DNA of 64,000 bases from an uncultured Chloroherpeton sp. (GTDB lineage: Bacteria > Bacteroidota > Ignavibacteria > Kapaibacteriales > UBA2268): contig CAZCNL010000003.1 in NCBI GenBank assembly GCA_964500435.1, forward strand, positions 40,664 through 104,663, given 5' to 3'. Shown one piece after another: positions 14,105-58,243 of the stretch; position 1 is the first letter of the stretch; each line of letters opens with the position of its first letter. Position numbers and translations under genes: made by a program. The notes under the pieces are model-generated. The model was not told where the DNA came from and ran no database searches. It worked only from the letters and a program-made list of their open reading frames with translations.

Positions 14105-17100
14105 TTAGTTTTGGTAAAGCATTTTTTCAATTTTTGGATTAGTAGAACTTAATTTTATAAAATAAATTCCTTGTGAAAGATTCGACAAATCTATTGTTTT
14201 TACGTAAGAACCCTTCGATAAATCAATTGTTAAAACAATTGCACCTAAATAGTTATAAAAGTCTAACTTGTCACCTTCATAAATATTTTTGAAAGAAATA
14301 TCAACTGATTTTTGACCGATTGGTTGAGCAAGTAGTTGAAATGTTGATTCTGGATAAATGATAATATGATTTCCACTTTCCAATGTGCAAATTGGTATTA
14401 TGGTTAATGAACCATCTTTTTTAATGATATTCAAATTTTTTGAAGTAAAAACATCAAATTTATTAATTATTAATGGCGTGTAATTTGGGTCTGAAGCCAA
14501 AACCAAGCCTTTGATTTGCAAAATAGTGTCTGCTATGGATAATAATTTTGAGGACTCTGATGCATTAAATGAAGCGTTGATTACACCGCTTAAGTAATCA
14601 AAATTATGTTTTAAGAATAAATTTGGTGATGATATAGCTTTTAACTCAAGTGGGAAAAATAGATATTTATCAAAATTCAGTCGGAATTGAATTGAATCTG
14701 TTAAAACTTTGGGGAGCTTGGTATCCAAATAAAAAGATAAAGTTAGTGTATCACCAGCTTTTGAATTATAATCTCGAGTACTTATTATTGCAAAATAACT
14801 CTCTTCGGGAGTTTGTGCTATTAAGTTGAAGATAATTGTATCTTTGCATATCGAAGATTCTTCGATTATAAAATTATCGACATAATTACCTTCTTTCTGT
14901 GATAGAAATGAGATAATTATATTTTCAGTTTCATTTGGCGCAACGATTAATGGAAGTTGCGTGTGTATTTCGAAGTTTTGTGGTAAAGATATTCCTTTAA
15001 TAATTCTTGGTGTATTATAAGGATTTTGAACTTGAATAGTATCAAATACTTCATCACCGACCCAAACACTCCCGAAATTCAAAGATTTTTTTGAATAAAC
15101 TAAATGTGGTTCTATTATTTCAGCTTTGAATGTTAATTTGTTTGTATCGCCACAAATATTGCTTATCCAAATTATATAACCAGAATATATTCCCGCTTTA
15201 TCAGCAATTTCAGGGTTGAATTCAACACTTATTGTCTGGGATGAATTTGAATTTAAAGAAAAATTAGAAATTGGTGAAATTGTGAAACAATTAGGGAAAG
15301 ATTGGTCTAAAATCGAAATGCTATCATTTAATTTCCCAATATTTTTTAATTCTCGTGTTTTTATTAAAGAGTTATCACATCGCTCAAATGTTCCGAAATC
15401 TATATAATTTGAATCGAGTTGAAGTACGGATTTAATAAAATTAACATTTAAAGGGAATGATAATATTTGTCCATCAGGGTCTATTGTTTTCAATATTAAA
15501 TCAGAAGAGTAATCTCCTTCAATTTGGGTTTCAAATTTGACGATAATTCCAAGCGAATCTTGGCTTTTTAAATAATATGGAAACGTATTTGGGTAAAGTA
15601 AAGTAAATTCTGGAGCACCTGAGATATCAATAGCGGTTATAGTATCTTGAACTGAACCTAAATTTTTAACCCAAATAGTATCAATTTTAGTGCCATCGCA
15701 TATAATATTTCCAAAGGCAGAATTAGTTCCCCAAACAATAAATCTATCTATACTTGATAAATCCAATGGAATACAGAAATCAGCAGGGCATTGACTTGAT
15801 GTATTGAAACATATTGTACCTTTATAAAAAGCATTTTTAGAAGAATTAATTGTTAAATTTAACTCAATATTTTGATTGATATCCAAGACTTGAGAAAGTT
15901 GAGGATTTAAATCAAATGTGAAATCGCTCGTTGGTGGATTTAAAGTATAATTAACGATAGTAATAATTTCATTTCCTGTATTTTTCAAAATAATTTTTTT
16001 GGTTTTTGGTTCATTGCTTTTTAAAACTTCAGAAATTGAATTCGGTGAAGCATCAATACTCGCTTCAATGCCAAAACCTGTAACAATTATCTGCAAACTA
16101 TTACATTTTCCGGTTGAAAAGAGCAAAGTATCAGAAAACTTACCCATTTTAGTAGGCATAAAGGAAAAAACTACATCCAAAAGTTGTTTAGGTTCTATTG
16201 TTGTATTACTTGGTAATTGGACTGCAAAGGGTAATTGAGTTTGTTTTAATTGAGTAATGTAACCTCGTAAATTGCCAGTGTTTTCTAATTGTAAAAGTGT
16301 GTCTTTTTTTGTATTTATACAAACCTTTCCAAAATCTATTATCGGATTTTTTAATAAAATTTCCTCTGATTGCTTCTTCCCAACTAAAAGAATATTTACA
16401 GGGTTTTTATTTCCTCTGACTGTAGTTTTGTCATTATTATCTAAACGCAGTAGATAGCTGACTGGTGTAAGGGAGTTAGGAGTAAATTGAACGATAATCG
16501 AATCTGACTTCCCGATAGGAATCGACACCGGTTCGCTTTTACCACTAGTCCAACCCAAAATTGAGACTTCAGTTGGGTTAGAAACGATAACTGATTTTGA
16601 AACAATTAATGTTGCATTACCGGTATTTTTTATAGGTATAGTGTCAATAATTTTTTGGTTACAAAAGCTATCGAAATGGATGCTGTCAGGAACTGTGATT
16701 ATTGGTGAAATTCCGTAAGCACGAACAGTTATTACAGTATCTAAATTACAGGGTAATAAATAGAAACGATATTTTTGGGTGACCCAACCAGTATCAGAGA
16801 GCATAAACTTAAATTCCGTAGATGTCCCAGTTTTAAAGACATAAAATGGGGTTTTTGTTTCGAAGCTAATTTGTCCTTTATCGTCAAGTAATTCAGAATA
16901 ATTTTTTACTTGGCTATTGTTATCATCTGCAATCCATTTAAGAAGTGAACTTGTAACGACTCCACATTGAATGCTATCAAGAACAAGTAAATTAGTTTCA
17001 GGGCGAGCAGTTGATTTATTTCCCTGTCCCAGCAAGTCGATATCTTTTGTGAATGTAGTTTTACCATCTTTGGAGGAAAGAACAATTGATAATTTTGCGG

Positions 17101-18304
17101 AATATGGACCATTTCCTGGAGGTGCGAATTTAATTACGATTGCATTTGAGTCACATTGAGAAATTGAAGAAATGCTCGAGGGAGATACAATAGAAAAAGC
17201 ATTATCAAAATTAGCAGAGAGTAAAATGCTCATATCAGCATCATAAAATGAATGGTTTGAAACAATTAATGAATCTTTTCGAGAGTCTGGATAACATATT
17301 TCACCAAAGTCAATTTTATCTTTCGAAGCAAGGAATTTAGTTTGTTTCAAGTGGTAAACCCCTTGTCCGACCACCCAGCCGTCATCTGGCGTGAGAAATG
17401 TGATATCGTCGAGATCGACATTTTCAATTCCACAATTTCGTAGTGTCCAAGTTGCCCCGGCATCGGAAGTGTAATAAAGAGACCTATTATAACCGCAAGC
17501 CCAACCTGTTGTGGGGCTTGTTAAATATGCACCAAACATAGGGTAACCGGAATTGAAGCTGCGCCATGTGTTCCCGTTATCTGTTGAAAATCTCATCCCG
17601 CCTGAATTACCACCTCCAAAACACGTTGTTCCCGCAGTAGGAAGCAAGATAGAATTTCCGGATATAGTAATTTCTTCTTGCCATACTTGTGTTCCCGTAG
17701 ATTTGCTAATTGACCAAGAAGAACCATAATCAGTAGTAATCCATAAATAACCGCTACTTACAGCAATTCCAGTTCCATTTTGATAAAGTATCACATCTGT
17801 TAGACCCGTTCCAACAACATTTGTTTTGAATAAAGTCCAAGAAGCACCGCCATTCGTAGTTTTATAGAAACGCTGCATATTATCGCAACCACCACCAATG
17901 ATAACCCCAAGATTTTCATTTAAAAAATAACTTCCCCAAAAGCCATAAATTGCGGAATCTTTAGGAGTAACATTGACAAAAGAGGCGCCTCCATCCGTGC
18001 TTTTCCAAATACCTTCGACACCAGACACATATCCAACTAATTCGTTTACAAAAAAAACATTTTCCATATGGTCTGCAGGTTGAGGGAGTGTAGAGCCTTG
18101 CCATGTTGCTCCATAATTTGTAGAGCGAATCACAAAACCACCAAAACCGCAAGCCCAAATATAATTTGTATTTGATGGAAGTATATATAAATCTAAATAA
18201 TAGCCATTATTGTATGGTGTAGGAATGTTAGTTACTTTTTCCCAATATTGAGAAAATGTAGTTTGAGTTAGTAGAAATAATAAAATGTAAAATAATATTT
18301 TCAT
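14105..18304 (-). CDS. Giant secreted surface protein with N-terminal BNR/Ycf48-like beta-propeller repeats and C-terminal T9SS sorting domain
   Basis: 1399 aa. Signal peptide with Q at +1. Repeated G(A/S)(T/S)W motifs (YGATWQG, TDGGASF, TNGGASWT, TDYGSSWS, TDNGNTWRS, SDAGATWT). A long Ig-like beta-rich middle. C-terminal KGSYVKTIDLSNLSQGIYFIKL... T9SS CTD. Confidence 0.65.
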   Translation of the reverse strand: MKILFYILLFLLTQTTFSQYWEKVTNIPTPYNNGYYLDLYILPSNTNYIWACGFGGFVIRSTNYGATWQGSTLPQPADHMENVFFVNELVGYVSGVEGIWKSTDGGASFVNVTPKDSAIYGFWGSYFLNENLGVIIGGGCDNMQRFYKTTNGGASWTLFKTNVVGTGLTDVILYQNGTGIAVSSGYLWITTDYGSSWSISKSTGTQVWQEEITISGNSILLPTAGTTCFGGGNSGGMRFSTDNGNTWRSFNSGYPMFGAYLTSPTTGWACGYNRSLYYTSDAGATWTLRNCGIENVDLDDITFLTPDDGWVVGQGVYHLKQTKFLASKDKIDFGEICYPDSRKDSLIVSNHSFYDADMSILLSANFDNAFSIVSPSSISSISQCDSNAIVIKFAPPGNGPYSAKLSIVLSSKDGKTTFTKDIDLLGQGNKSTARPETNLLVLDSIQCGVVTSSLLKWIADDNNSQVKNYSELLDDKGQISFETKTPFYVFKTGTSTEFKFMLSDTGWVTQKYRFYLLPCNLDTVITVRAYGISPIITVPDSIHFDSFCNQKIIDTIPIKNTGNATLIVSKSVIVSNPTEVSILGWTSGKSEPVSIPIGKSDSIIVQFTPNSLTPVSYLLRLDNNDKTTVRGNKNPVNILLVGKKQSEEILLKNPIIDFGKVCINTKKDTLLQLENTGNLRGYITQLKQTQLPFAVQLPSNTTIEPKQLLDVVFSFMPTKMGKFSDTLLFSTGKCNSLQIIVTGFGIEASIDASPNSISEVLKSNEPKTKKIILKNTGNEIITIVNYTLNPPTSDFTFDLNPQLSQVLDINQNIELNLTINSSKNAFYKGTICFNTSSQCPADFCIPLDLSSIDRFIVWGTNSAFGNIICDGTKIDTIWVKNLGSVQDTITAIDISGAPEFTLLYPNTFPYYLKSQDSLGIIVKFETQIEGDYSSDLILKTIDPDGQILSFPLNVNFIKSVLQLDSNYIDFGTFERCDNSLIKTRELKNIGKLNDSISILDQSFPNCFTISPISNFSLNSNSSQTISVEFNPEIADKAGIYSGYIIWISNICGDTNKLTFKAEIIEPHLVYSKKSLNFGSVWVGDEVFDTIQVQNPYNTPRIIKGISLPQNFEIHTQLPLIVAPNETENIIISFLSQKEGNYVDNFIIEESSICKDTIIFNLIAQTPEESYFAIISTRDYNSKAGDTLTLSFYLDTKLPKVLTDSIQFRLNFDKYLFFPLELKAISSPNLFLKHNFDYLSGVINASFNASESSKLLSIADTILQIKGLVLASDPNYTPLIINKFDVFTSKNLNIIKKDGSLTIIPICTLESGNHIIIYPESTFQLLAQPIGQKSVDISFKNIYEGDKLDFYNYLGAIVLTIDLSKGSYVKTIDLSNLSQGIYFIKLSSTNPKIEKMLYQN

Positions 18305-28059: not shown

Positions 28060-28782
28060 TTACCTTTTAATAGGGTTAAGCTCATTATTTGGTGGTGTTG
28101 ATTTCAAAGAATCTGGGTTATTTGGATTCTGTTGTTCTGGGTTCTCGAACTGCCTATCGTCGGGTGTGTCAGTTTTTGTTCGAGATACTCTTTTGGGCTT
28201 AACAGATTGTTTTTGTTGATTAGCTGGGTCTTTTTGAATTTTTTCTTGTAATTCTTTTTCTAATTGCTCAACATCGACACCCAATTCTTTCAGCACTTCT
28301 ATTGTTAAATCATATTTGAAATTGACATAAGCAAGAGGTTGAACACTTTGGTCAAATACAATATCGAAATTTCGTGAATTTGCTACCTTTTGTACGGCTG
28401 CAGAAATTTTTTGGTCAATTGGTGTCATAATTTGTTTAACAACTTGGTCATATTCACCATTTGGTGAAAATTTCGAACGTGCATAGCCTTCGCTTTGTTC
28501 TTTTAATTCACGTAATTCTTTTTCTTTTTGAGATTTTTCTTCGTCTGTCCAAATTAGCCGATTTTTATTAATTTCAAATTCAAGATTATCAATATTTTTT
28601 TGAATTACAGACAACTCTCTTTTCCATTCTTCAACGAATGAACGAATTCGTTGTTCAGCTTGTTGAGCATCAGGTAATTTTGTGCGAATCATTTGCGAGT
28701 TGATAAAAGCAACTCTTTGTGCAAATGTTGTAAAAGGGACAATTCCTATACTTAATAGTACTAATAAAAGTAGTTTTTTCAT
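28060..28782 (-). CDS. skp: OmpH/Skp-family periplasmic chaperone (first copy)
   Basis: Signal peptide with Q at +1 and a coiled-coil-rich ~200 aa body with a Pro/Asn-rich tail. Located between bamA and lpxD. Confidence 0.7.
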   Translation of the reverse strand: MKKLLLLVLLSIGIVPFTTFAQRVAFINSQMIRTKLPDAQQAEQRIRSFVEEWKRELSVIQKNIDNLEFEINKNRLIWTDEEKSQKEKELRELKEQSEGYARSKFSPNGEYDQVVKQIMTPIDQKISAAVQKVANSRNFDIVFDQSVQPLAYVNFKYDLTIEVLKELGVDVEQLEKELQEKIQKDPANQQKQSVKPKRVSRTKTDTPDDRQFENPEQQNPNNPDSLKSTPPNNELNPIKR

Positions 28783-28824: not shown

Positions 28825-29382
28825 TCAATTATTACCTCTTTTTATAACATCTAATACTTTATATGTTAAATCAAATTTATCATCAAAATATAAAAGTGCA
28901 TTACTTGTTTTGTCTAAGACTAATGAAATAGATTCTTCTTTTGCAACTTTTTGGATGGCAGTTCTAACTTTCTCTCTAATTGGGTCTAAAAATTTTTCTC
29001 TTGTTTGATTGAGTTCACCATTTTGTCCGAATTTTTGGTCTTGGTATTGGATTAATTGGTTTTGCATCATTTGTAAGGATTCTTCTTCTTTTGATTGTTG
29101 GTCAGCGGACATTAAAGATTTTTGTTTTTGATATTTTTGAATTTTGTCATCAAATTCTTTTTTCATTGCAATAAGTGAGTCCTGCCATTTTGTTCCTATT
29201 TCTTTTAATTTTTTATCAGCTGCAACAGCTTCAGGCATTTCTTTTAAAATAATTTCAATATCGACAATTCCAAATTTCAAAGTTGGAGTGTTAGAAGATT
29301 TACCTTGTGCTAAAGCAGCATTGAAAGAAAAGCTGAAAGCAAGTACAAAAATTGTTATTAATGAGATGATTGTGTATTTCAT
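28825..29382 (-). CDS. skp: OmpH/Skp-family periplasmic chaperone (second copy)
   Basis: Signal peptide with Q at +1 and a coiled-coil body. Tandem with the first skp-like gene. Confidence 0.7.
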   Translation of the reverse strand: MKYTIISLITIFVLAFSFSFNAALAQGKSSNTPTLKFGIVDIEIILKEMPEAVAADKKLKEIGTKWQDSLIAMKKEFDDKIQKYQKQKSLMSADQQSKEEESLQMMQNQLIQYQDQKFGQNGELNQTREKFLDPIREKVRTAIQKVAKEESISLVLDKTSNALLYFDDKFDLTYKVLDVIKRGNN

Positions 29383-29439: not shown

Positions 29440-31794
29440 TTATTGCTGACCAAGATGGAAAAGGAATTGCCAACCTGAAGGTGCTTTCGAGGTATTAGTT
29501 GGGTCAAATCCGTAACCATAACTAAATCCAATCATACCAATTGGATTAATCAATAAATGTACACCAAGTCCAGCAGAGCGTTTCAAATCAAATGGATCTG
29601 TTTTTGCAAACGATTGCCAAACATTTCCTGCTTCGCCAAAAGCATAAACATAAATTGGCATTGGGTCTAAAGAAATTGCAAATCGCAGTTCTGCCGTATA
29701 TTTTGCCAATACGTAACTTCCATTATCACTACCAATTGATCTATCTTGATAACCACGTAAAGGAGTTACACCCCATCCACTCAAACCATTTCCGCCTAAA
29801 TAATATCGTTCGATTGGTGGGATTGTAGAAAGTGATTTAAAACTTGTTAAATAGCCCCATTTCGAACTCAACATAAATACTAATCTATCTTGCCCTTCGA
29901 TGGATAAAATAGGATTGAAAGAATCATAATTAAGTTCGGTTTTAAGATAATCTGTTGTTCCAATTCCTAAAGAACCTAATGCAAAATCGTTGCTTAATGA
30001 AAATCTTGAACCTACGGAAGGGAAAAATTGATTGTTAATACTAATTCTGGAATATTTTTGACTTAAAGTGATTTCAGTGCCAGGAACAAATAATGAAGAA
30101 GAGCCTTGACCAACATCATTGTACATCCATCGGAAACTCCAATCTCCACGCCAGTAATCATCAGGCCATTTAAATCTGCGACCCAAATTTACTGTAATAC
30201 CAGTTCTCCGCATACTGAAATAATAATTGTAGCGTGTGTCAAATAAATTGAAACCAATAGTTGTTGGCTCATCATTTAACCAAGGTTCTGTGAATCCTAA
30301 TGAAAATGTTTGGTATTGTGAAAATTGACCAAATTCCCAGTTAAATGAAAATATTTGACCAGCACCACCTTTAAGTGGTTCGGATAATGAAAAGTTATTA
30401 AATGAAAAGCCTATTGAGCCGGTTAAGCCAAATGTACCCGCAAAACCAATTGAGGCATTAAATGTATCAGTTGACCTTTCTTCGACATTGTAAATTATAT
30501 CGACGCTGGTATTATCAATTGCCGACGGTTGAACATCCGGTTTTAATTTTTCGGGGTTAAAGTAGTTCATTACACCTAATGCACGAATACTTCGAATTAT
30601 AGCAGAACGGTCGAAATAATCACCTGGACGTGTGTATAATTCTCTTCTAATTACTTTATCTTTTGTTTTTGTATTTCCAACTATGTCTACTTTGCCTATT
30701 TTATACCTTGTGCCTTCAAAAATCATAATTGTTAAATCTAATGAATCATCTGCAACTTTTTTCTCATTAGCAATTAAGCGGGCTTGTAAATAACCATTAT
30801 CTAAATATAAAGAAGCAGCATCAGTTTGGTCTTGATTTGCTTCAAGGTTTTGCTTTAATTTTCCATAATTGTATACATCACCTGGTTTGATATCAATTCT
30901 GCGTAGCAAAACTTCGTTAGAATACACACTATTACCGTCAAAATTGATTTTCCTAATAAAATATTGATTGCCTTCATTGACATTTATTGTAATGTCAACT
31001 TTACCCTCATTTTGGTCGTAAATAATCGTATCTTTAATTATTTCGGCATCAATAAAACCATGATTTTTGTAATAATCAATTAGCAATTTCTTATCATCTT
31101 GATATTTTTTATCGTCAAATTTACCAGATTTCCAAAATTGCCACCATTTTTTGATTTTAGTTTCTTCGAAAGAGCTTATTAAATCACTTGCATCGACTTT
31201 TTTATTTCCGATTATAGTGATTGAGCGTGTTTTGAAATGAGTGCCTTCATCAATAAAAAAGTGCAAATCGACGTAGTTTTTTAATTCAGTATACCGAATA
31301 TCCGGAGAAATTTTAGCAAAGAGTAATCCTTCATCGCTATATTTTTTTCTAAGAGCATTTTTAATTAATAGAGTATCATAATTAGAAATAATGTCGCCTT
31401 TAGTTTTATTGACTTCTTTTAATAAGTCCTTTGTGCTTATTGCATCATTTCCTTCGAAGAAAATTTCGTTTAATCTTGGGAATTCTTCAACTTTAATTAA
31501 CAGAAAAATGCCTGCATCTGTGATTTTGTCGATTAAAATTTCAATTTTATGGAATTGTTTTCTTTTCCATAGATTCAAAATGGCATTTTGAATTTTTGTT
31601 TCATTTGTTTGAGCAATCACATCTCCAACACGAAGTCCAGAGAGAGAAATAATTGTTTCAGCTGAAACAAAATTGTTGCCTTCAACACTTATACCAGCAA
31701 TAATAATAGGTTTAGCTTGCTCGGTTGGTAATTGAGCATAAGAAAAAAATGAATAAAAAATTAATAAAAAAACTAAAAATAATTTAACTTTCAT
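29440..31794 (-). CDS. bamA: Outer membrane protein assembly factor BamA
   Basis: POTRA repeats followed by an Omp85 beta-barrel. The listed ORF begins at 31875, but the likely start is the internal Met MKVKLFLVFLLIFYSFFSYA (signal peptide, Q at +1). That start overlaps the uppS stop by 11 nt. Confidence 0.85.
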   Translation of the reverse strand: MKVKLFLVFLLIFYSFFSYAQLPTEQAKPIIIAGISVEGNNFVSAETIISLSGLRVGDVIAQTNETKIQNAILNLWKRKQFHKIEILIDKITDAGIFLLIKVEEFPRLNEIFFEGNDAISTKDLLKEVNKTKGDIISNYDTLLIKNALRKKYSDEGLLFAKISPDIRYTELKNYVDLHFFIDEGTHFKTRSITIIGNKKVDASDLISSFEETKIKKWWQFWKSGKFDDKKYQDDKKLLIDYYKNHGFIDAEIIKDTIIYDQNEGKVDITINVNEGNQYFIRKINFDGNSVYSNEVLLRRIDIKPGDVYNYGKLKQNLEANQDQTDAASLYLDNGYLQARLIANEKKVADDSLDLTIMIFEGTRYKIGKVDIVGNTKTKDKVIRRELYTRPGDYFDRSAIIRSIRALGVMNYFNPEKLKPDVQPSAIDNTSVDIIYNVEERSTDTFNASIGFAGTFGLTGSIGFSFNNFSLSEPLKGGAGQIFSFNWEFGQFSQYQTFSLGFTEPWLNDEPTTIGFNLFDTRYNYYFSMRRTGITVNLGRRFKWPDDYWRGDWSFRWMYNDVGQGSSSLFVPGTEITLSQKYSRISINNQFFPSVGSRFSLSNDFALGSLGIGTTDYLKTELNYDSFNPILSIEGQDRLVFMLSSKWGYLTSFKSLSTIPPIERYYLGGNGLSGWGVTPLRGYQDRSIGSDNGSYVLAKYTAELRFAISLDPMPIYVYAFGEAGNVWQSFAKTDPFDLKRSAGLGVHLLINPIGMIGFSYGYGFDPTNTSKAPSGWQFLFHLGQQ

Positions 31795-33659: not shown

Positions 33660-34940
33660 ATGAAAAAATCATCTTCTTTGTTCTTTTTGCTTTTTGCAAC
33701 GATTTACATTTCGTTTGCTCAGACCAATGACACGAAATTTGGAATTAATTTAGGCGGATATCTAAAAACTGATATGTTTTACGATACAAGACAAAGTTTA
33801 GTTTTAAGAGAAGGGCACGTGTTGTTTTATCCATTACCAGTTTCTTTAGATGCAAATGGAAAAGATTTAAATGCGAATGGAAGTTTTAATATTTTATCAA
33901 TCCAATCAAGAGTATGGGGTAAAATTACAGCACCTGATGCATTTGGTGCTCAGAGTAGTGGTTATTTAGAAGGTGAGTTTTATGGTACATCTGATGGAGA
34001 TGTTAATGGTTTTAGGTTACGTCATGCATTTTTGACATTAAAATGGGAAACAACTGAATTATTAGTTGGACAAACTTGGAATCCTATGTTTCAAACTGAC
34101 TGCTTTGCGGGAGTAATTTCCTTTAATACAGGTTTTCCTTTTCAACCATTTGGTCGAAATCCGCAAGTCAGATTAAAACAATCATTTGGTGCTCTGAATT
34201 TATATTTAACCGCTTTAACTCAAAGGGACTTCAACAGTCCTGGACCAAATGGATTTTCGTCAAGTTATTTGAGAAATGCAATTGTTCCGGAATTAAATGC
34301 TAAAATTGAATATTCAACGAAAAGTCAAAACGAAGATTTATTATTTGGTGCAGCAAGCAGCTACAAGTCACTGGTTCCGAGACAAAAAAATTCCAAAAAT
34401 GTTGAAGTAACCGACGAAAAAGTCAATAGTTTCGAAGCAACTGGATATTTCAAATATAGAACAGACCCAATTGAATTTAGATTACAGGGCTTTTACGGAC
34501 AAAACGCCGCTGATTTGATGCAAATAGGAGGATATGCCGTAAAAAAGACTACAGATCAAGCTAAAATAACAAATGATTTATGGGAATATACTCCTTTTAA
34601 TGTAGTTAGTGGTTGGACAGAGATAATATCATTATTTCCAACAAGTTATGGTAAATTTGAACTTGCTGTTTTTGGAGGATATTCAAAAAATTTGGGTACA
34701 TCTGATGAAATTATGGGTGATGGTTTACAAAGTTCTTATATTTTTGCAAGGAATTCTAATATTGACGATTTAATTCGTGTATCACCGAGAATTGCTTTTT
34801 CATCAGGTAAAACAAAATTTGCGTTCGAAACTGAATATACAGCAGCCAAATATGGGATTAATGACAAAGATGGAAAAGTAAACAATGGGGAAAGTGTTTC
34901 CAATATTAGATTTCTTTTGGCAGCATTTATTTTCTTTTAA
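33660..34940 (+). CDS. Outer-membrane beta-barrel protein, porin-like (hypothetical)
   Basis: Signal peptide with Q at +1, alternating beta-strand amphipathic pattern, and an aromatic C-terminus (FIFF) typical of OMP beta-barrels. Confidence 0.55.
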   Translation: MKKSSSLFFLLFATIYISFAQTNDTKFGINLGGYLKTDMFYDTRQSLVLREGHVLFYPLPVSLDANGKDLNANGSFNILSIQSRVWGKITAPDAFGAQSSGYLEGEFYGTSDGDVNGFRLRHAFLTLKWETTELLVGQTWNPMFQTDCFAGVISFNTGFPFQPFGRNPQVRLKQSFGALNLYLTALTQRDFNSPGPNGFSSSYLRNAIVPELNAKIEYSTKSQNEDLLFGAASSYKSLVPRQKNSKNVEVTDEKVNSFEATGYFKYRTDPIEFRLQGFYGQNAADLMQIGGYAVKKTTDQAKITNDLWEYTPFNVVSGWTEIISLFPTSYGKFELAVFGGYSKNLGTSDEIMGDGLQSSYIFARNSNIDDLIRVSPRIAFSSGKTKFAFETEYTAAKYGINDKDGKVNNGESVSNIRFLLAAFIFF

Positions 34941-38024: not shown

Positions 38025-38028
38025 AATT

Positions 38029-38292: not shown

Positions 38293-38296
38293 AATT

Positions 38297-46106: not shown

Positions 46107-48191
46107 TTAATTTAATCCACGTTTGTTTAATAACGGTTCAATGCTTGGTTCTTTACCACGGAATTTAATGTAAAGTTGCATGGGGTCTTCGGTATTTCCA
46201 CGTTCGAGAATATTTTTTCTGAAAGCATCTGCAGTTTTTTTGTCGAAAAGACCATTTTCTTTGAATGCTTGGAAAGCGTCGCTATCGAGAACGCCAGCCC
46301 AAATGTAGCTATAATAACCTGAATCGTAACCTCCACCAAAGCTATGACGGAAATAAGTTGATTTATATCTGGAAATAATTTCTGGTATTAAACCTAACGC
46401 ATTCATTTTTTCTGTTTCAAATTTATTTACATCTTCTGTTAAAGGGCTTTCAATTGTGTGGTAATACATATCTAAATATGATGCAGCAAGGTATTCAACA
46501 GTAGCAAAACCTTGGTCGAACTTCGAACTGTTAACAATTTTATTTACTAATTCTTGTGGAATGACTTCGCCTGTTTTATAATGTTTTGCATAAAGTGCTA
46601 AAACTTCAGGTTCGAATGCCCAATTTTCCATAATCTGTGAAGGTAATTCAACAAAATCACGAGCAACATTGGTCCCACTTACACCGAGATAATTACAATT
46701 TGAGAAAAGACCATGCAAGCCATGCCCAAATTCGTGGAAAAATGTTTCCACTTCATCAATGTTCAAAAGTGAAGGTTGATTTTTTGTTGGTTTAGCAAAG
46801 TTAAATACAAGAGAAACAATGGGCGATATTTTTTTTCCGTTTTTATAATATTGTTCTTGGTAATTTGTCATCCAAGCGCCACCTCTTTTGCTATCCCTTG
46901 GGAAAAAATCCATATATAAGATTCCAAGATGAGAACCATCAGAGTTTAATACTTCATAGCCAACTACATCTTTATGGTAAACAGGTAAATTTTTCAATTC
47001 CTTAAAGGTAATTCCATATAATTTATTTGCAACGGCAAATATGCCGGCCCGCACATTTTCTAATTTAAAATATGGACGGAGTTGCTCTTCATTTAAATCA
47101 TATTTTTTCAATCGAACTTTTTCTGCATAATATCGCCAATCCCAAGGTTCAAGTTTGAATTTTCCTCCTTCTTCGTTTATCATTTCTTGATATTCATCTG
47201 CTTCTTTTTTTGCCATTTTAATTGCAGGTGTCCAAAGTTTATCGAGCAATTCAAAAACTTTTTCGGGTGTTTTTGCCATATTTTCAGCAAGGACGTATGC
47301 AGAATGCGATTTATAACCTAAAAGTTTTGCTCTTTCTAATCTTAAATTAGCAATTTCTTCTATAACTTTTTTATTATCGAATTCATTATTATTATTCCCT
47401 CGCATTGAGTAGGCACGCCAAATCTTCTCTCGTAAATCCCGTTTTGCAGAATATTGCAAGAAAGGCATAACTGATGGATTTTGTAATGTGAAAATCCATT
47501 TATTTGGCATATTTGAAGCTTTAGCATCCTCGGCAGCAGCATCTATTAATGATTGAGGCAATCCTGCTAAATCTTCTTTATTATCTATAACTAATTTAAA
47601 ATCATTTGTTTCTTTTAACACATTTTGATTGAATTTCAAAGTGAGTAAGGAAAGTTTAGAGTTAATTTCCCGCAATTTTGTTTGAGATGCATCATCTAAA
47701 TTTGCTCCATTGCGAGCAAAATCGTTATAATCTTTTTCAAGTAATCTCATTTGTTCTGCGGTCAACTTCAATGAATTTCGCTTTTCGTAAACAGCTTTGA
47801 TGCGTTCGAAAAGTTTTTTGTTCAGCAAAATGTTATCTGAATGTTCTGAAAGGATTGGTGAAATCTCATTAGCAACCTTTTGCATTTCATCATTAGTGAT
47901 AACACCGTCTAAATTAAAGAAAATCGTAGTAATTCGGTTTAAAAGCAAACCACTTTTGTCGAGAGCATCGATAGTATTTTCAAAATCTGGAACTGCTTTA
48001 TTGTTAACGATTTCGTCAATTTCTTTTTCGTGAATCTTTATTGCTTCTTTTATGGCAGGAAGAAAATCCGATGTTTTGATTTTATCAAAAGGAGGAACTT
48101 GATATAGTGTTTTAAATTCTTCAAGTAAAGGATTAGACAACAAAATACTGCTCATAGCAAAACTCATTATAAAAAATTGTAAGATTTTCAT
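46107..48191 (-). CDS. dcp: M3-family zinc metallopeptidase (peptidyl-dipeptidase Dcp / oligopeptidase A-like), secreted
   Basis: HEFGHGLH zinc-binding motif with a downstream E in the characteristic M3 arrangement. N-terminal signal peptide. 694 aa. Confidence 0.8.
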   Translation of the reverse strand: MKILQFFIMSFAMSSILLSNPLLEEFKTLYQVPPFDKIKTSDFLPAIKEAIKIHEKEIDEIVNNKAVPDFENTIDALDKSGLLLNRITTIFFNLDGVITNDEMQKVANEISPILSEHSDNILLNKKLFERIKAVYEKRNSLKLTAEQMRLLEKDYNDFARNGANLDDASQTKLREINSKLSLLTLKFNQNVLKETNDFKLVIDNKEDLAGLPQSLIDAAAEDAKASNMPNKWIFTLQNPSVMPFLQYSAKRDLREKIWRAYSMRGNNNNEFDNKKVIEEIANLRLERAKLLGYKSHSAYVLAENMAKTPEKVFELLDKLWTPAIKMAKKEADEYQEMINEEGGKFKLEPWDWRYYAEKVRLKKYDLNEEQLRPYFKLENVRAGIFAVANKLYGITFKELKNLPVYHKDVVGYEVLNSDGSHLGILYMDFFPRDSKRGGAWMTNYQEQYYKNGKKISPIVSLVFNFAKPTKNQPSLLNIDEVETFFHEFGHGLHGLFSNCNYLGVSGTNVARDFVELPSQIMENWAFEPEVLALYAKHYKTGEVIPQELVNKIVNSSKFDQGFATVEYLAASYLDMYYHTIESPLTEDVNKFETEKMNALGLIPEIISRYKSTYFRHSFGGGYDSGYYSYIWAGVLDSDAFQAFKENGLFDKKTADAFRKNILERGNTEDPMQLYIKFRGKEPSIEPLLNKRGLN

Positions 48192-48283
48192 AAAAATAAA
48201 ATGTTTAATTAATAAAATGCAAATTAAGAATAAATAGAAAAATAAATATTATCAGTAGGTATTAAATTGAATTTTTGTTCATC

Positions 48284-50623
48284 TTATTCTTCAGCTAAAA
48301 CAATTACTTGCAAATGCTCATTGATTTGTATAACTGTTTTTTTATTTGGGTTTATAACATATTCATTATCAGCATTATCATAAATATATCCTATTGCAGT
48401 TTCATTGTAAACTGAAAAAATATCAATAATTTCGGCAAAAGTTAATTGATTTTGTTGTATATCAGCATAATCTTTTAATCTTCGGAAATATAACTCAGAA
48501 CCCTCTGATGTAAAGAGAATATTAAATGCTTTTTCTAATTCTCTTTCTTCGGATAATTGAGCTAAAATTGAACTTACCATTGTTGAACCAATGATATAAT
48601 CGCTGACTTGCTCATTTTTTGCTAACTCCTCATTAAATTTATTTAAAAGCTCAACAACAACTGAGTATTTGCGATTGTATTCTTTTGCGATATCTCGTAA
48701 ATGAATCAATGAAACTAATGTTATAGAATCTGCTGCTTCCATCTCTAATTCTTCATTGTTACTTAAAATTATTATATCGTCTTTGTCTTTTGTAATCTCA
48801 ACTAAAAAATCTTTATCTGTAATATCCCCAATACTAAAAGTAACATTTAATTCTCCAATTTTATAAGAATTATCATTAATTAATACGAAACTGTTTCTTA
48901 CTTTTTCATCATTGCAATTTTTAATATAATCTATTGTTTTTTTGAATTCTTCAGAATTAAAGGGTACAACAGTTAAATTGCATTCTAACTTTATATAAGA
49001 AGATAATTCACAAATAATCAATTCAAGTTTGTTATTTGAACCTAAGATTAAGAAATTTTTTGATTGCATATTCGAAACGACATCTTTTTTGGTATTATAA
49101 TTATGGATAGTCGGAATCTTAACAGGTGAATATTTAATTGTGCTATCATCTTCAGCAAGAATTACTAACTTATCCTCAGGTTTAAAAACGTAGTCCATAG
49201 GTGGATTTAATACGCAACCATTAAATTCATTTAAAATACCAAAAGGACAAGATTCTTGAAAATCAAATAATAACTCATAAAAAGTCTTTCCGATTAAATT
49301 GCGACCAACTTTTTTATTTGTTTCATCAACAATATATAATTCGCTCCCTTGAAAACCTATAATTTCACTAATAACTTTGGTCAACTTATGGTTAATAGTT
49401 GATTGGGTAATAATTCTCGACAAGAAGTTTGTTGAATTGAACACAATCAATTGGTCAGATGCGATACTTTTAGCAATCTTGATTGTTTTTTGGTCTGAAA
49501 TTTCGGCAGTAATATGAAATTTATTAATGGAATTTTTAGGTTTATGGTTAATTAATGCAATTATTGATTTAAGAATTGGCATATCATCAATATAATTGTC
49601 ATCTTTTAAAATAATAATTGAATTAGATTCCCAAGCATTTGCAATAATTAAATCAGAAAGAGACTGTGGCGAACCATTTCTGAAACTAATTTTGGTAGTT
49701 TGTGTATTTTCAAAATAATCCCGCAATGTTAAATCAATTTCATTTTTGTCACGTTCAGCTAAAATCACAATATGTGCTTTTTCTTTACTATAATTTGCTT
49801 CTATTAATTCCTCAATAATTTTGAAAATGTTTTGGGACCAACCTAAAATTAGAGTATGATTAGTATAAAGTATTGGCGATTTGCCACGTTTTTCATTTTC
49901 TTTTGTAGATTCCATATCAGATGTAATGATGCCAATAAATAAATTTAAAAATATCATTGCTGCGATGAATTGGAAACTTATGAAAAATAATGAAAATATC
50001 CAATCTGGAAATCCCGAATTTAAAAGCTTTTGTATTCCTTCGCTTTCGTAGAGACTTGACCAACCTTCGAATGTAATAAATAATAATCGCTTCATTGAAA
50101 TCCAAATGCTGCCGAAATTTTCAGCGTCAACTTTTCCAAACAAATCTGTTGCAATTATTCCATAAACATAAAAAAGAAGCATCAACAGCAAAACAACATA
50201 AGTCATTGAAGGAATACTTCGTAATAATGATGTAAGTAATATTTTTAAATTTTTGTTTTTTTCAAAAATTTTTGCAAATCTTAAAATTCTTGCTAATCGG
50301 ATTACGACTAAATATTGAGTGTCAATAACTGGAAAGAAAAAAGGTACGAAACAAACTGCTACAACCAAAAAATCAAAAATATGCCAAGAATCATAAAAAA
50401 ATCGCCAAGGGTATTTGCCTTCTGCTAAAATATTTATTATTATTTCAATAGCGAAAATAAGCAAGATTAAGTTATCAAAAAAATCTAAGATACTTCCATA
50501 TTTTGATGTTATTGATGGAGAAGTCTGCAACCCAACAACAACTCCTGTTAATAATATTACAATGTTTATGAAATTTTCAAATTTTTTTGAATGTGCAATC
50601 TTTTTAAATTTTGCTTGCCACAT
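48284..50623 (-). CDS. Voltage-gated cation channel-like protein (6TM, NaChBac-like pore) fused to large cytoplasmic tandem RCK/TrkA-like domains
   Basis: S4 helix with Arg/Lys every third position (VVIRLARILRFAKIF). Pore loop LLFITFEGWSSLYE resembles the TLESW filter of bacterial NaV/CaV channels. About 500 aa of cytoplasmic sequence follow, with two Rossmann-like ILGxS... segments. Confidence 0.55.
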   Translation of the reverse strand: MWQAKFKKIAHSKKFENFINIVILLTGVVVGLQTSPSITSKYGSILDFFDNLILLIFAIEIIINILAEGKYPWRFFYDSWHIFDFLVVAVCFVPFFFPVIDTQYLVVIRLARILRFAKIFEKNKNLKILLTSLLRSIPSMTYVVLLLMLLFYVYGIIATDLFGKVDAENFGSIWISMKRLLFITFEGWSSLYESEGIQKLLNSGFPDWIFSLFFISFQFIAAMIFLNLFIGIITSDMESTKENEKRGKSPILYTNHTLILGWSQNIFKIIEELIEANYSKEKAHIVILAERDKNEIDLTLRDYFENTQTTKISFRNGSPQSLSDLIIANAWESNSIIILKDDNYIDDMPILKSIIALINHKPKNSINKFHITAEISDQKTIKIAKSIASDQLIVFNSTNFLSRIITQSTINHKLTKVISEIIGFQGSELYIVDETNKKVGRNLIGKTFYELLFDFQESCPFGILNEFNGCVLNPPMDYVFKPEDKLVILAEDDSTIKYSPVKIPTIHNYNTKKDVVSNMQSKNFLILGSNNKLELIICELSSYIKLECNLTVVPFNSEEFKKTIDYIKNCNDEKVRNSFVLINDNSYKIGELNVTFSIGDITDKDFLVEITKDKDDIIILSNNEELEMEAADSITLVSLIHLRDIAKEYNRKYSVVVELLNKFNEELAKNEQVSDYIIGSTMVSSILAQLSEERELEKAFNILFTSEGSELYFRRLKDYADIQQNQLTFAEIIDIFSVYNETAIGYIYDNADNEYVINPNKKTVIQINEHLQVIVLAEE

Positions 50624-50753
50624 AATTGTAGTTTTTTTTTTTGAATAATAAATAAAGAAAAAAATAAATTAGCAAAATTTTTTTAAATATAATAACATTT
50701 TTACATTATTTCGTCAATAATTTCAATGATTTTATAAACAAAATTTTTACAAA

Positions 50754-51602
50754 ATGAATAATAATTATCATACATTCCTTTTTTTATTCTTCATAATATT
50801 TTTTTCATTTTCTTGCGGTAATTCACAAGATAGAACAAATAATAAAAAAGTTGAGAATGGCTTGACTGAACAAAAACAATCACAAAATTCCAATTCTGAT
50901 GTTAAATATAAAGTTTTATATCCAGTTATCAAAAAAATATATCCACACGATGAAAAAGCTTACACTCAAGGTTTGTATTACAAAAATGGTTATTTATATG
51001 AAAGTTCTGGGCTTTACGGTGAGAGCACTTTACGAAAAAATGATATTCTTACGGGCAATTCATTAAAAAAGATAAGTTTGCTCCCAATTTATTTTGGTGA
51101 AGGTATTACAATTTATAATGATAAAATTTATCAATTAACATGGACTAATAAAAAAGGTTTTGTATATGATATGAATTCATTCCAAAAAATTGGTGAATTC
51201 GTTTATCCGACTGAAGGGTGGGGAATAACAAGCGACGGCAAATCTTTAATTGTCAGCGATGGCACTAATTTTCTTACATTTTACGATCCAGTAACTTTCG
51301 AAATCACAAAAACCATTTCTGTACAATTTCAGAACCAATCTGTAATGAACTTGAATGAATTAGAATTCGTAGATGGGAAAATTTATGCAAATGTTTATAT
51401 GACTGATAAAATTGCAATAATAAATTCTGAAAATGGAAATGTAGAACAATGGATAGATATCAGCAGTCTTCGTATGCAACTTGATGACCCTTCTGCTGCC
51501 GAAGTTTCAAACGGAATTGCATTTAATCCCGAAACGAAAACTTTTTATTTGACTGGAAAATATTGGTCAAATTTATTTGAAGTTCTCTTTGAAGAAAAAT
51601 AA
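50754..51602 (+). CDS. Glutaminyl-peptide cyclotransferase, plant/bacterial type (beta-propeller QC), probable lipoprotein
   Basis: Conserved blocks shared with papaya and bacterial type-I QCs: AYTQGL, ESSGLYG, YFGEGIT, KIYQLTW, EGWGITSDG, SDGTN, LNELEFVDGKIYAN, NGIAFN, YLTGKYWSNLFE. N-terminus has a signal peptide with Cys (FFSFSC). Confidence 0.85.
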   Translation: MNNNYHTFLFLFFIIFFSFSCGNSQDRTNNKKVENGLTEQKQSQNSNSDVKYKVLYPVIKKIYPHDEKAYTQGLYYKNGYLYESSGLYGESTLRKNDILTGNSLKKISLLPIYFGEGITIYNDKIYQLTWTNKKGFVYDMNSFQKIGEFVYPTEGWGITSDGKSLIVSDGTNFLTFYDPVTFEITKTISVQFQNQSVMNLNELEFVDGKIYANVYMTDKIAIINSENGNVEQWIDISSLRMQLDDPSAAEVSNGIAFNPETKTFYLTGKYWSNLFEVLFEEK

Positions 51603-51623: not shown

Positions 51624-52340
51624 TTAATTGCCAATAAATAATGGTGATGGTTTTACATCACCAAATAAAAAAATAGGTACATCAGGATAATCAGGATTAT
51701 TAGTTAACAGCAAAATCTTTCCTTTTAATACGCCAACTTCATTAGGAGAAAAAGTTATAGTCAATGGGTATGAATCATTTTTCTTGATTATTTGTCCATC
51801 TTTTAAATTAACTCGAACATCCGATGGGGAAATTGAACCAATATTAACTATTACGTCCATATCTGATTTATTATTTAATGTTATTGTTTGGCTACTTGTT
51901 TCGCCTACACGAATATCAGTAAATGAAATAAATGAACTTGGTGAAACAAAGATATCACGTCTTATATCTGCTTTTAATGTTAATTCTAAAACACTATTTT
52001 TCGGATCGTTTGAAAACACTCTAATAGATTTTTGGATTGGTCCTTGGTATGATGATATTGATAAAGTTATTATCATACTTGTTTTCTCACCAGGTGCTAA
52101 AACATTTTTTGTGAGAGGTGCATTTGTGCAACCACAAGTAGGTTGAACATGTGTTATAACTAATGTATCAGTTCCAGTATTTCTCAATTCAATTTCGGCA
52201 TTTAATGGGTGGTCTTTTGGTTTTACTATTCCCCAATCAATGGTTGTGCCTTTTGGAAAGAATAATGTAGGTTCAGAAAATAGACAAATATTAGAAAATA
52301 GAAATATTAAAATCACACTATATTTAAGGCGGTTTATCAT
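51624..52340 (-). CDS. DUF1573 domain-containing secreted protein
   Basis: Signal peptide. NTGTDTLVITHVQPTCGCT matches the DUF1573 signature (F.N.G..PL.I..V..SCGCT). Confidence 0.65.
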   Translation of the reverse strand: MINRLKYSVILIFLFSNICLFSEPTLFFPKGTTIDWGIVKPKDHPLNAEIELRNTGTDTLVITHVQPTCGCTNAPLTKNVLAPGEKTSMIITLSISSYQGPIQKSIRVFSNDPKNSVLELTLKADIRRDIFVSPSSFISFTDIRVGETSSQTITLNNKSDMDVIVNIGSISPSDVRVNLKDGQIIKKNDSYPLTITFSPNEVGVLKGKILLLTNNPDYPDVPIFLFGDVKPSPLFIGN

Positions 52341-52420: not shown

Positions 52421-53638
52421 TTATTTGAATAAAGAAAATTTTATAAGCTGACAATAATTCTTAGTTTGGATTTTGATGAAATAAATTCCACTTGAATAAG
52501 GGTAAGTTTCAAGAAAAATCTTATTTAAACCAATTTGTAATTTATGGTCATTAATTGATTGTAGCATATTCCCGAATATATCAATGATTTCTATATTCAC
52601 ATAGTAATCTGAATTAGTTTGAATTTGCAAGAAAGAATCATCATTATTTGTAAAAAAATCGCATTTAAACAAATTATTATCTTCTAAATTTACGGAAGTG
52701 TTCGATTTTGCTTCTCCTGAATTTGCATTTACCATAAGGCTTGATATATCAACAGCTTCGAAATCACTTCCTTTGATTTGTTTAAGCTCATTTATTGCAT
52801 CATTATTCCATCTTTCGTCGGGAACGCCTGAAATGAACCATGCAGAACCATTATCAGCAAGAATCATCCCATATTTTTTTAATGCTGTTAAAATAACTTG
52901 AGCTTCTTTGGAAAATGTTGAAATATTCACGCTATTTTTTAATCGGAAAACCTGTCCCATAGGTGGATATTTCTCATCAGTAATTGAAGAAGCATAATGT
53001 CTTGCGGGCCATTTATATTTTCGTTGAGTTTTTGGTACCGTAAATCTAATCATATGTTTAATTTCTCCAGCAGCGACTTCATCATATCTTACCAAACCTG
53101 GTAATATAGGTAATCCAGCAGCATCTGCTGAAGTCCACGAATCAGGACGTAGAGAATTTGAATTCAAATCAAAAATTGCTCCTGAACCTGCTCTCCAACT
53201 ACCATCCGGATTTTTATATGCAGAATAAAGTTCATATAATATGCAGTTGTCCTTATCAACTATTAAAATATGTCTATCACCGTTACTATCTTCGCCCCCT
53301 TCAATCAGTGGATTGTCTGGTATTGGATAAGGTCCTTTGTCAGATTCATCTGCATATTCGAATTGCACGAATACTTTTTTTTGATCGCCATCAACAATTG
53401 TATATGGAATCCCAATAGGCGCATTATTCCATAAACCAGAACCAAAATCAGGATGCAAATTTTTTGTTAGACCTATTGTTTGTATGTAAATATCTGAATT
53501 TTTATCTACTGGTAATTTATCAATTGGTGTGTTCCAAATATTGTTTGATGGTAATATTGAACAGGGCATTTCAACTTGTGCTAATGTAACAAAAGTTGAT
53601 ATTAATATAGTTGTGAAAATGAATAATATGTTCTTCAT
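52421..53638 (-). CDS. Secreted protein of unknown function with C-terminal T9SS sorting domain
   Basis: Signal peptide with Q at +1. A ~300 aa conserved-looking domain (HILIVDKDNCILYELY, MIRFTVP...WPARH, GMILADNGSAWFISG) with no family I can name. C-terminal ...GIYFIKIQTKNYCQLIKFSLFK CTD. Confidence 0.55.
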   Translation of the reverse strand: MKNILFIFTTILISTFVTLAQVEMPCSILPSNNIWNTPIDKLPVDKNSDIYIQTIGLTKNLHPDFGSGLWNNAPIGIPYTIVDGDQKKVFVQFEYADESDKGPYPIPDNPLIEGGEDSNGDRHILIVDKDNCILYELYSAYKNPDGSWRAGSGAIFDLNSNSLRPDSWTSADAAGLPILPGLVRYDEVAAGEIKHMIRFTVPKTQRKYKWPARHYASSITDEKYPPMGQVFRLKNSVNISTFSKEAQVILTALKKYGMILADNGSAWFISGVPDERWNNDAINELKQIKGSDFEAVDISSLMVNANSGEAKSNTSVNLEDNNLFKCDFFTNNDDSFLQIQTNSDYYVNIEIIDIFGNMLQSINDHKLQIGLNKIFLETYPYSSGIYFIKIQTKNYCQLIKFSLFK

Positions 53639-56929: not shown

Positions 56930-58243
56930 CTAAATAACTTTTTTTAGTTTAAATGAGCTGATTGCTTTTTGAAATATTAAGTTATAATATTTATATAAAG
57001 GTAATGGCATCAAAAACCGCATTTCTACAAGGTTCTCGCCGTAAGCAATACCAAAATTCCAAACAATTGAAGCTACTGATTGTTTATCTTTTTGCATTAG
57101 TATTTTGTCTAAAATTGAAGGATAATTATTATATGTTTTACTTACTCTTTCAGCGAGTTGATATCTCCAAAATTGTGGTAAAGTTGAAAGAGAATCTTGT
57201 ATTTTCCTCCAATATTCAATTATATCAGCGGGTTCATTCGAACCTACCGTTTTTGAGATAAATGGAGTAATTTTAACTTTTATTCCTAATCTATTATCAT
57301 AAGTAAATAATGAATCGGGATAAAAATAGACAACAATACTATCTTGGAATTTTTCCTCATGAATTTTAAAATCACTTGGTAACAAAATTGTAAATGATGA
57401 ATCTTTATTTGTGAAAGTGCTCATTTCTGTTTTATTTGGGTCGAGTATTTCACCCAGCCTAATATCTTCTACTGTCCTTCTGTCTTGTCGAGCATGCAAA
57501 GAATCTCCAATCATATCAAAAGCGAAAGCTCGGTTATTATATGCAAAAGGGTTTAGCGGTTCCCAATAAATTACTTGAGTATAATCATCAATTGCTTTTT
57601 GATAATCTTTGTTCTTAAAATACGAGTTTGCTCTTCTTAAAAAGATATCAGAATTTATATAATTATTTTCCATTGCATTAGTAAAATGTTGAATTGCATC
57701 TTGATATTTACCGAGTGAATGCTCGGCTCGTGCTCTTTGGAAGTAAATTTCGGGATTTAAAGTATCTAAGGAATTTGATTTTAATAAATCATTATAAGCA
57801 TCATCAATTTTTCCTCTGTCGAGATAAATCTTTGCTCGATTTAGATATGCTTCGGCAAATTTTTTGTCTAATTCAATTGCTTTATTGAAGTCATTTAAGG
57901 CTGAATTTGTATCATTTTTCTTAATTTCGACTAATCCTTTTAAATTGTATACATCCGAAATTTTGGGTGCGAATTTAACAAGTAAATTTAAACTTGCTAA
58001 TGATGAATCGTATTCTTCGAGACGGAAATAACATAAACTTTTATTGAAAAGTGCATCCGGATTTGTTTTGTCAACTTTTAAAACAGAATCAAATACAGCA
58101 ATTGCTTCGTTAAATTTACGAAGTGTAATCAGATTTTTTCCAAATTCAACTTTGCTTGTAATTGTTTCTGTAGAATATAAATTGCTTAAAGAAATTATAA
58201 TAAAATATAGTGCAACAATGATACTAAACTTATTTATTTTCAT
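56930..58243 (-). CDS. Secreted tetratricopeptide-repeat protein
   Basis: Signal peptide, then at least 6 TPR units (AIAVFDSVLKVD, ALNDFNKAIELD, AIQHFTNAMENN, AIDDYTQVIYWE...). Confidence 0.7.
   Translation of the reverse strand: MKINKFSIIVALYFIIISLSNLYSTETITSKVEFGKNLITLRKFNEAIAVFDSVLKVDKTNPDALFNKSLCYFRLEEYDSSLASLNLLVKFAPKISDVYNLKGLVEIKKNDTNSALNDFNKAIELDKKFAEAYLNRAKIYLDRGKIDDAYNDLLKSNSLDTLNPEIYFQRARAEHSLGKYQDAIQHFTNAMENNYINSDIFLRRANSYFKNKDYQKAIDDYTQVIYWEPLNPFAYNNRAFAFDMIGDSLHARQDRRTVEDIRLGEILDPNKTEMSTFTNKDSSFTILLPSDFKIHEEKFQDSIVVYFYPDSLFTYDNRLGIKVKITPFISKTVGSNEPADIIEYWRKIQDSLSTLPQFWRYQLAERVSKTYNNYPSILDKILMQKDKQSVASIVWNFGIAYGENLVEMRFLMPLPLYKYYNLIFQKAISSFKLKKVI

Follow-up and report, generated by a model that had tools for sequence, protein, structure and literature searches.

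The subject of this study is a glutaminyl cyclase (QC) gene on a 64-kb stretch of DNA from an uncultured bacterium (64,000 nucleotides of contig CAZCNL010000003.1). We refer to the whole stretch as the window and number all positions within it. The gene, at positions 50754 to 51602, encodes an intact type I (plant/Xanthomonas-type) QC. Half of the signal peptidase I (SPase I)-type substrates encoded in the same window carry Gln at the first residue after the cleavage site (position +1, hereafter Gln+1). We consider the best explanation, and a likely one, to be that an active type I lipoprotein QC converts the Gln+1 of Sec substrates to pyroglutamate (pGlu). This reading draws on sequence features and on analogy with the Q-rule of Bacteroidetes.

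The window encodes an intact type I glutaminyl cyclase

The open reading frame (ORF) comprises 282 codons, and its ATG is the only plausible start. The product matched the Pfam family Glu_cyclase_2 (PF05096) with an E-value of 2.9e-89 and 299.2 bits against a gathering cutoff of 22.3. Coverage was near-complete, with residues 42-277 aligned to profile positions 12-247 of 249. In the PDB, sequence searching returned glutaminyl cyclases exclusively, from Zymomonas mobilis (3NOL, E = 2.7e-59), Xanthomonas campestris (3MBR, 4e-56), Carica papaya (2FAW/2IWA, 1.7e-53) and Myxococcus xanthus (3NOK, 6e-33). Over ~220 residues, the window QC was 44.5%, 44.1% and 41.4% identical to the first three, respectively; identity to the M. 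xanthus enzyme was ~32% (Foldseek). The initial annotation, made from the letters of the sequence alone, had proposed a plant-type QC with block-wise identity to the papaya and Xanthomonas enzymes, and the 41-44% identity and the PF05096 match bear this out.

We built an AlphaFold2 model on an alignment of 24 homologues (alignment A1). The mean pLDDT was 88.6, and values exceeded 90 for residues 54-281. When the model was compared with the PDB by Foldseek, the top five structures were the QCs 3NOL, 2IWA, 3MBR, 2FAW and 3NOK (E = 1e-23 to 1e-28), with target-normalised TM-scores of 0.88-0.95 and rmsd of 1.3-1.9 Å. The superposition on 3NOL gave a TM-score of 0.95 and an rmsd of 1.3 Å. Generic WD40 propellers ranked far lower, at E ≈ 1e-10.

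The catalytic and oxyanion residues of papaya QC are E69, N155, K225 and Q24, as given by Bochtler et al. 2018 (PMC5837995), who also place a Glu at the Q24 position in Xanthomonas and in 19% of Bacteroidetes enzymes. In the HMMER alignment to 2FAW, papaya Q24, E69, N155 and K225 fell on Q72, E116, N201 and K269 of the window QC, all identical. Its residue at the Q24 position is therefore the papaya-like Gln and not the Glu of Xanthomonas. Across the 24 diverse homologues, E116, N201 and K269 were invariant. The initial annotation had singled out catalytic Glu/His residues for inspection. All four type I residues are present, but the Glu/His metal site that was named belongs to animal-type QCs; this part of the annotation was mis-set because the two QC types had been mixed up. 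An animal-type (type II, zinc-aminopeptidase-like) QC was considered as a candidate and rejected, since the product gave no Pfam match of that kind and all its structural neighbours were propellers.

The solved type I QCs (3NOL, 3MBR, 3NOK and 2FAW/2IWA) thus share with the window enzyme the PF05096 family, the five-bladed propeller and the active-site residues. The lipoprotein-type signal and the ~30-residue polar tether of the window QC are a probable difference from them.

Half of the SPase I-type substrates in the window expose Gln

We located cleavage sites with a home-made heuristic that combines h-region hydropathy, the small-residue rule at positions -3/-1 and distance terms, and that is blind to the +1 residue. 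The initial annotation had named seven exported proteins with Gln+1, and the heuristic recovered all seven (Table 1). The further claim, that most signal peptides of the locus expose Gln at +1, held in part. Gln accounts for 3.6% of the ORF residues of the window, and for 3.9% of the residues that follow A, S or G in mature regions. Seven of the 14 SPase I-type substrates had Gln+1, a Q-value of 50% with a 95% confidence interval of 23-77%, and the binomial tail against the 3.6% background was p ≈ 2e-7. The enrichment is real, but the fraction is half and not most. The seven proteins have different destinations: BamA the outer membrane, the two Skp copies the periplasm, two are cargo of type IX secretion (T9SS), and two belong to unknown families. 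The T9SS assignment of the cargo protein near the QC gene came from a TIGR04183 match scoring 24.2 bits (cutoff 23), and its orthologue in the locus of a relative (L084) reads AYS↓QNELP.

Table 1. Features of the window, with predicted cleavage sites marked by an arrow
Feature	Position	Strand	Basis
Glutaminyl cyclase gene (type I/plant-type), 282 aa + stop	50754..51602	+	PF05096, PDB matches, AlphaFold, Foldseek
QC signal peptide, residues 1-20 (lipobox-like end ...FFSFS), plus putative lipidated Cys21	50754..50816	+	regular expression, Cys in homologues, predicted helix
QC putative tether, polar and of low complexity, residues 22-53 (GNSQDRTNNKK...)	50817..50912	+	low pLDDT, variable among homologues
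QC five-bladed β-propeller catalytic domain, residues 54-281, with Q72, E116, N201 and K269	50913..51596	+	papaya mapping, alignment, pLDDT >90
Exported protein, no Pfam match; LLS↓QEEK (Gln18 at +1)	1542..2783	+	blind heuristic
T9SS cargo, 1399 aa (BNR/ASH/Ig domains and Por_Secre_tail); TFS↓QYWE	14105..18304	-	domains, blind heuristic
OmpH/Skp chaperone, copy 2; TFA↓QRVA	28060..28782	-	PF03938 E = 7e-21, blind heuristic
OmpH/Skp chaperone, copy 1; ALA↓QGKS	28825..29382	-	PF03938 E = 1.8e-31, blind heuristic
BamA from internal ATG at 31794; SYA↓QLPT	29440..31794	-	POTRA and Omp85 domains, blind heuristic
Exported protein of unknown family; SFA↓QTND	33660..34940	+	blind heuristic
T9SS cargo, 405 aa, with Por_Secre_tail, two genes downstream of QC; TLA↓QVEM	52421..53638	-	TIGR04183, blind heuristic
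TonB-dependent receptor, non-Gln; FA↓E	3065-5968	+	blind heuristic
T9SS cargo, non-Gln; FA↓A or AA↓P	5993-8023	+	blind heuristic
FliP, non-Gln; FA↓E (FGFA↓EQLP)	37230-38024	+	blind heuristic
Exported protein, non-Gln; IA↓V	41461		blind heuristic
M3 peptidase, non-Gln; LS↓N or MS↓S	46107..48191	-	blind heuristic
DUF1573 protein, non-Gln; FS↓E	51624..52340	-	blind heuristic
TPR protein, non-Gln; YS↓T	56930..58243	-	blind heuristic

The heuristic was also run on 100 kb of Escherichia coli K-12. Gln+1 was called in 2 of 12 non-lipoprotein signals; one of the two was FhuA, a known miscall. The known sites of DegP, Skp, BtuF and Ivy were reproduced, with Ala at +1 for Skp. BamA, whose mature form starts with Ala, was called three residues late, with F at +1. 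For comparison among taxa, we used QC-carrying loci from 80 genomes, drawn from the matches listed in a contig search with the QC alignment. Grouped by taxon name, Gln+1 was found in 2/24 for Proteobacteria, 0/6 for Chloroflexota, 0/8 for Archaea and 7/14 for Bacteroidota. The best contig match among those listed was a 2.2-kb Kapaibacterium contig with 61% identity. Four QC-homologue neighbourhoods gave three Gln+1 among 14 heuristic calls, a set into which lipoproteins, one membrane anchor and one probably spurious call are mixed; clean signal peptides were too scarce there for a Q-value of the clade.

BamA allowed the same blind call to be made on one protein across many relatives. We took the 120 best matches to the window BamA in the protein database, which were 54-100% identical to it. 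Gln stood at +1 in 88 of the 119 orthologues with a call. Positions -3, -2, +2 and +3 were variable in an otherwise unconserved signal-peptide region. The junction Gln, kept amid variable neighbours, is therefore selectively maintained throughout the clade. Of the 31 non-Gln calls, most had a junction A/S/G↓Q within a few residues of the called site (GYS↓QLF, LFA↓QGQ, AYS↓QFE), and a few non-Gln orthologues were N-terminally truncated and had no such junction.

These results bear on whether the Gln+1 pattern is a product of chance, or a compositional artefact of picking sites by eye. The sample is small: the 14 signal peptides come from one 64-kb window, and the contigs encoding its first and last complete genes, 12.4 and 8.7 kb long, hold next to nothing beyond it. 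The heuristic miscalls some E. coli sites, those of FhuA and BamA among them. Nevertheless, a procedure that does not see the +1 residue still yields all seven sites at the probability given above, and the same procedure finds Gln+1 in 74% of the BamA orthologues, a share that rises to nearly all when the sequences are inspected. A chance origin is therefore scarcely credible.

A separate observation concerns Glu. Of the seven signal peptides that lack Gln+1, three have Glu in that position (3065, 37230 and 51624); 3/14 is not significant. The Glu+1 of the DUF1573 protein is kept in its orthologues, the sites reading FS↓EPTLF, IA↓EPTLF and MA↓EPTLY (L084 10944-11660; L085 10843-11583). N-terminal Glu is described as a slow QC substrate in PMC11312887.

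The QC carries a lipoprotein-type export signal

The N-terminus of the QC reads MNNNYHTFLFLFFIIFFSFS, followed by C21 and GNSQDRTNNKK.... We ran a PROSITE-style lipobox expression as a regular expression; it fitted LFFIIFFSFSC, with the Cys at position 21. In the structural model, a helix spans residues 5-17, and residues 21-48 have pLDDT values below 50 and are disordered. We therefore read this region as a signal peptide that leads into a flexible tether, the length and sequence of which differ between homologues. The 40 closest database matches (at least 49% identity) include 38 full-length proteins, and 36 of these have a lipobox-like Cys ending the hydrophobic stretch. The residues flanking the conserved Cys differ among close homologues (SCG, SCN, ACN, SCD, SCS and SCE). 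Among 61 more distant full-length homologues, just 23 have such a Cys. This contrast between close and distant homologues mirrors that of Bochtler et al. (PMC5837995), where lipoproteins are predicted for 87% of Bacteroidetes plant-type QCs versus 48% of bacterial ones overall. The Cys-containing signal peptide that had been described for the QC is thus upheld, both by the match at Cys21 and by its homologues.

Some features of this N-terminus weigh against lipidation and would suit an enzyme of the same kind and role that is cut by SPase I and soluble in the periplasm. The n-region, MNNNYHT, has no Lys or Arg in its first seven residues; the lipobox residues -2/-3 (F, S) are atypical; and the heuristic gave an SPase I-type site, SCG↓NSQ, an acceptable score of 8.57. 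The strict PROSITE-like expression fitted 25 of the 38 close homologues, and PMC5837995 predicts ~5% of the plant-type QCs in Bacteroidetes to be SPase I substrates. However, the Cys is kept in nearly all close homologues though its neighbours vary, it is much rarer in the distant ones, and a disordered polar tether after the Cys is typical of lipoproteins. We consider a soluble QC improbable, and lipidation at Cys21 is the likely reading of these sequence features.

An inner-membrane retention signal has been proposed for Porphyromonas gingivalis, and the Gly at +2 after the Cys of the window QC fits it (PMC10653852). The plant-type QC of Nonlabens sediminis (NsQC) has Cys-Lys-Thr instead and lies in the outer membrane when in P. 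gingivalis. Relatives of the window QC carry Asn, Asp, Ser or Glu at +2, with Gly at +3 in some, and because of these other residues we place little weight on a retention reading.

Probable coupling of the QC to Gln at +1

Bochtler et al. 2018 (PMC5837995) report a mean Q-value of 71% for Bacteroidetes, 332 of the 334 species lying above 48%, and values below 9% for most Chlorobi. Among the outliers adjoining Bacteroidetes, Chloroherpeton thalassium reaches 55% and Ignavibacterium album 77%. According to the same study, plant-type QCs predominate in Flavobacteriia, and nearly all Bacteroidetes QCs are predicted lipoproteins. In P. gingivalis, QC activity is essential, and the lethal deletion of PgQC is rescued by the plant-type Nonlabens QC (Szczesniak et al. 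2023, PMC10653852). Gln-to-Asn substitutions lowered protein abundance, pGlu was proposed to shield proteins from periplasmic amino- and dipeptidyl-peptidases, and the Q-rule was described irrespective of protein destination (PMC10653852).

The window resembles the version of this system that uses a plant-type QC (Flavobacteriia, e.g. the NsQC organism): it likewise combines a lipoprotein-type QC with Gln+1 enrichment whatever the destination of the protein, and T9SS cargo is likewise present. The match to the published Bacteroidetes Q-rule, which the initial annotation had asserted, therefore stands. The window differs in its Q-value of 50%, which lies at the lower end of the values published, and in the status of pGlu, which we infer for this organism. 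PgQC of P. gingivalis (PG2157, type II) catalyses the reaction that we expect of the window QC, and lipoprotein anchoring and role would also be alike; its fold is unrelated, being zinc-dependent and aminopeptidase-like, and the window QC gave no match to that family.

From these comparisons, the following sequence of events may be proposed. The QC precursor would be exported by Sec, lipidated on Cys21 and cut by signal peptidase II (Lgt/LspA processing). Its propeller would then be held by a flexible tether of ~30 residues on a membrane surface facing the periplasm; the Gly at +2 would fit retention at the inner membrane, as proposed for P. gingivalis. These steps of export, lipidation and tethering are suggested by features of the QC sequence. 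At that surface, the QC would cyclise the N-terminal Gln exposed by SPase I to pGlu on about half of the Sec substrates of the organism. The window's share of these would consist of BamA, the two copies of Skp, two of the T9SS cargo proteins and the two unknowns. The blocked N-termini would withstand aminopeptidases and other exopeptidases. Cyclisation of these substrates and its stabilising role are suggested by homology and by the published Bacteroidetes experiments.

Several points weigh against an active QC coupled to Gln+1 in this organism. No NCBIfam model matched the QC. The sample is confined to 14 signal peptides of one window, and its Q-value is low for Bacteroidetes. Moreover, plant-type QC homologues occur, among the matches listed, in many phyla without a Q-rule, and the presence of a plant-type QC alone is therefore no proof of coupling. 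The Gln+1 bias could then reflect an SPase I site preference or lineage history, with the QC acting elsewhere, e.g. on small peptides. The listed homologues in those phyla are 40-50% identical; in Proteobacteria, Chloroflexi and archaea without a Q-rule the enzyme presumably acts on other substrates, and the proteobacterial QC-carrying loci showed the low Gln+1 count reported above. N-terminal Gln also cyclises spontaneously, if slowly. On the other hand, the coupling in Bacteroidetes has been established by experiment, with pGlu on SPase I substrates, an essential QC and complementation by a plant-type enzyme (PMC5837995, PMC10653852). The window QC has a Bacteroidetes-style lipoprotein signal, and no other QC type was seen within the 64-kb window. 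We regard an uncoupled QC and Gln+1 bias as very unlikely, and favour the lipoprotein QC acting on the Gln+1 substrates.

The host is a flagellated member of the Kapabacteria

The nearest named relative of the QC, with 97% identity, is from a 'Candidatus Kapaibacteriota bacterium' (MGB9701812.1). Other QC matches are named Kapabacteria, Chloroherpetonaceae and 'Ignavibacteria bacterium GWF2_33_9', and BamA matches are named Kapaibacterium sp., Kapabacteria and Ignavibacteria. The NCBI taxonomy places 'Candidatus Kapaibacteriota' in Bacteroidota (taxid 976). The window has a G+C content of ~30% and encodes fliP, fliQ, fliR and flhB of the flagellar export apparatus on the forward strand (37230-40174). 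FliP, FliQ, FliR and FlhB are not known from classical Bacteroidetes. These data point to a flagellated member of the Kapabacteria/Kapaibacteriota, within Bacteroidota broadly and outside its classical classes. The affiliation with the FCB group that had been predicted agrees with the Kapabacteria relatives of QC and BamA and their placement in Bacteroidota. Since fliPQR-flhB and T9SS cargo (5993, 14105 and 52421) lie in one window, flagella are combined with type IX secretion in this organism.

In this respect, the window departs from the described Bacteroidetes system, as its host stands next to Ignavibacteria and not in a classical class. The 2023 literature calls the Q-rule coupling 'exclusive to Bacteroidetes', and our literature search found no publication joining Kapabacteria with QC or the Q-rule. 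We tentatively suggest, at somewhat less than even confidence, that the coupling of a lipid-anchored QC to Gln+1 is not exclusive to Bacteroidetes and goes back to the ancestor of a broader clade, with the flagellated Kapabacteria and the Ignavibacteria among its members; QC-bearing Acidobacteriota may have it in a weaker form. The flagellated host is the sole mildly new aspect beyond the known Q-rule. A specialist will find little surprise here because Ignavibacterium was flagged in 2018, and no new question is opened; the literature already covers the mechanism, the types of enzyme and the phylogenetic spill-over to Ignavibacterium. The window nevertheless offers a clean Q-rule example with a plant-type lipoprotein QC in an uncultured, flagellated member of the Kapabacteria, at the base of Bacteroidota sensu lato, and it favours a trait older than the classical Bacteroidetes classes. 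It also predicts pGlu-blocked N-termini on BamA, Skp and T9SS cargo in Kapabacteria, which would bear on proteomics and on the choice of start and cleavage sites in the annotation of metagenome-assembled genomes (MAGs).

Gln+1 was also seen in loci named Acidobacteriota that carry a plant-type QC (among L003-L076), with a count of 14/48 (29%) by a crude blind call and crude gene calling in high-GC DNA. Compared with the 2/24 of Proteobacteria, Fisher's test gave p = 0.07; the binomial test against a 4% background gave 4e-9. Examples are L044 5059-9198, L034 1023-3359, L061 11545-17421 and L065 1179-2528. A literature search found no publication tying Acidobacteria to the Q-rule. A locus of Hydrogenedentota (L077) gave Gln+1 in 2/4.

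Gene neighbourhood and start sites

The gene order M3 peptidase, variable slot, QC and DUF1573 protein (46107-51602) is kept in two relatives (L084 7001-10852 and L085 7703-10837). In the window, the slot is occupied by a Castor/Pollux-type ion channel of 779 aa (48284..50623, reverse strand) and in L084 by a 265-aa gene of unknown function; in L085 it is empty. In the more distant L086 and L087, the order of M3 peptidase, QC and DUF1573 protein is lost. A functional link between the QC and these two neighbours was considered and found to have no basis, the order being kept in the two closer relatives and lost in the two distant ones.

Several start sites deserve comment. Upstream of the likely start, the BamA ORF (29440-31875, reverse strand) continues for another 27 codons and reaches a GTG at 31875. 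A database protein 100% identical to the window BamA (P0121, 784 aa) and other orthologues start at the ATG at 31794. The surrounding order is bamA-skp-skp-lpxD, with tandem Skp paralogues of which the second has 240 aa and a C-terminal extension. For the T9SS cargo gene at 5993-8023 (forward strand), the JGI call (L082 6350-8344) starts 12 codons downstream, giving 664 aa, and thereby loses the greater part of the signal peptide MYRIFLILIAVTMITYSNFA↓A. In the NCBI entry for the 97%-identical QC (P0006, 246 aa, starting MTEQKQ), signal peptide and lipobox are both missing. Start-site miscalls in AT-rich MAGs, as in these last two cases, therefore hide export signals.

The longest ORF at 23896-24369 (reverse strand) encodes 157 aa with no Pfam match and contains an internal Met. 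From this Met, the product shows a textbook lipoprotein signal, MFKNLILIIVSTLVVFFVAC↓SDEV, and is probably a small lipoprotein of ~116 aa. The product of 8869-11988 (reverse strand), 1039 aa long, is a multi-pass membrane protein with a TMEM260-like domain of protein O-mannosyltransferases (PF11028, E = 1.6e-57); a GT2 glycosyltransferase gene (8154..8861) adjoins its gene.

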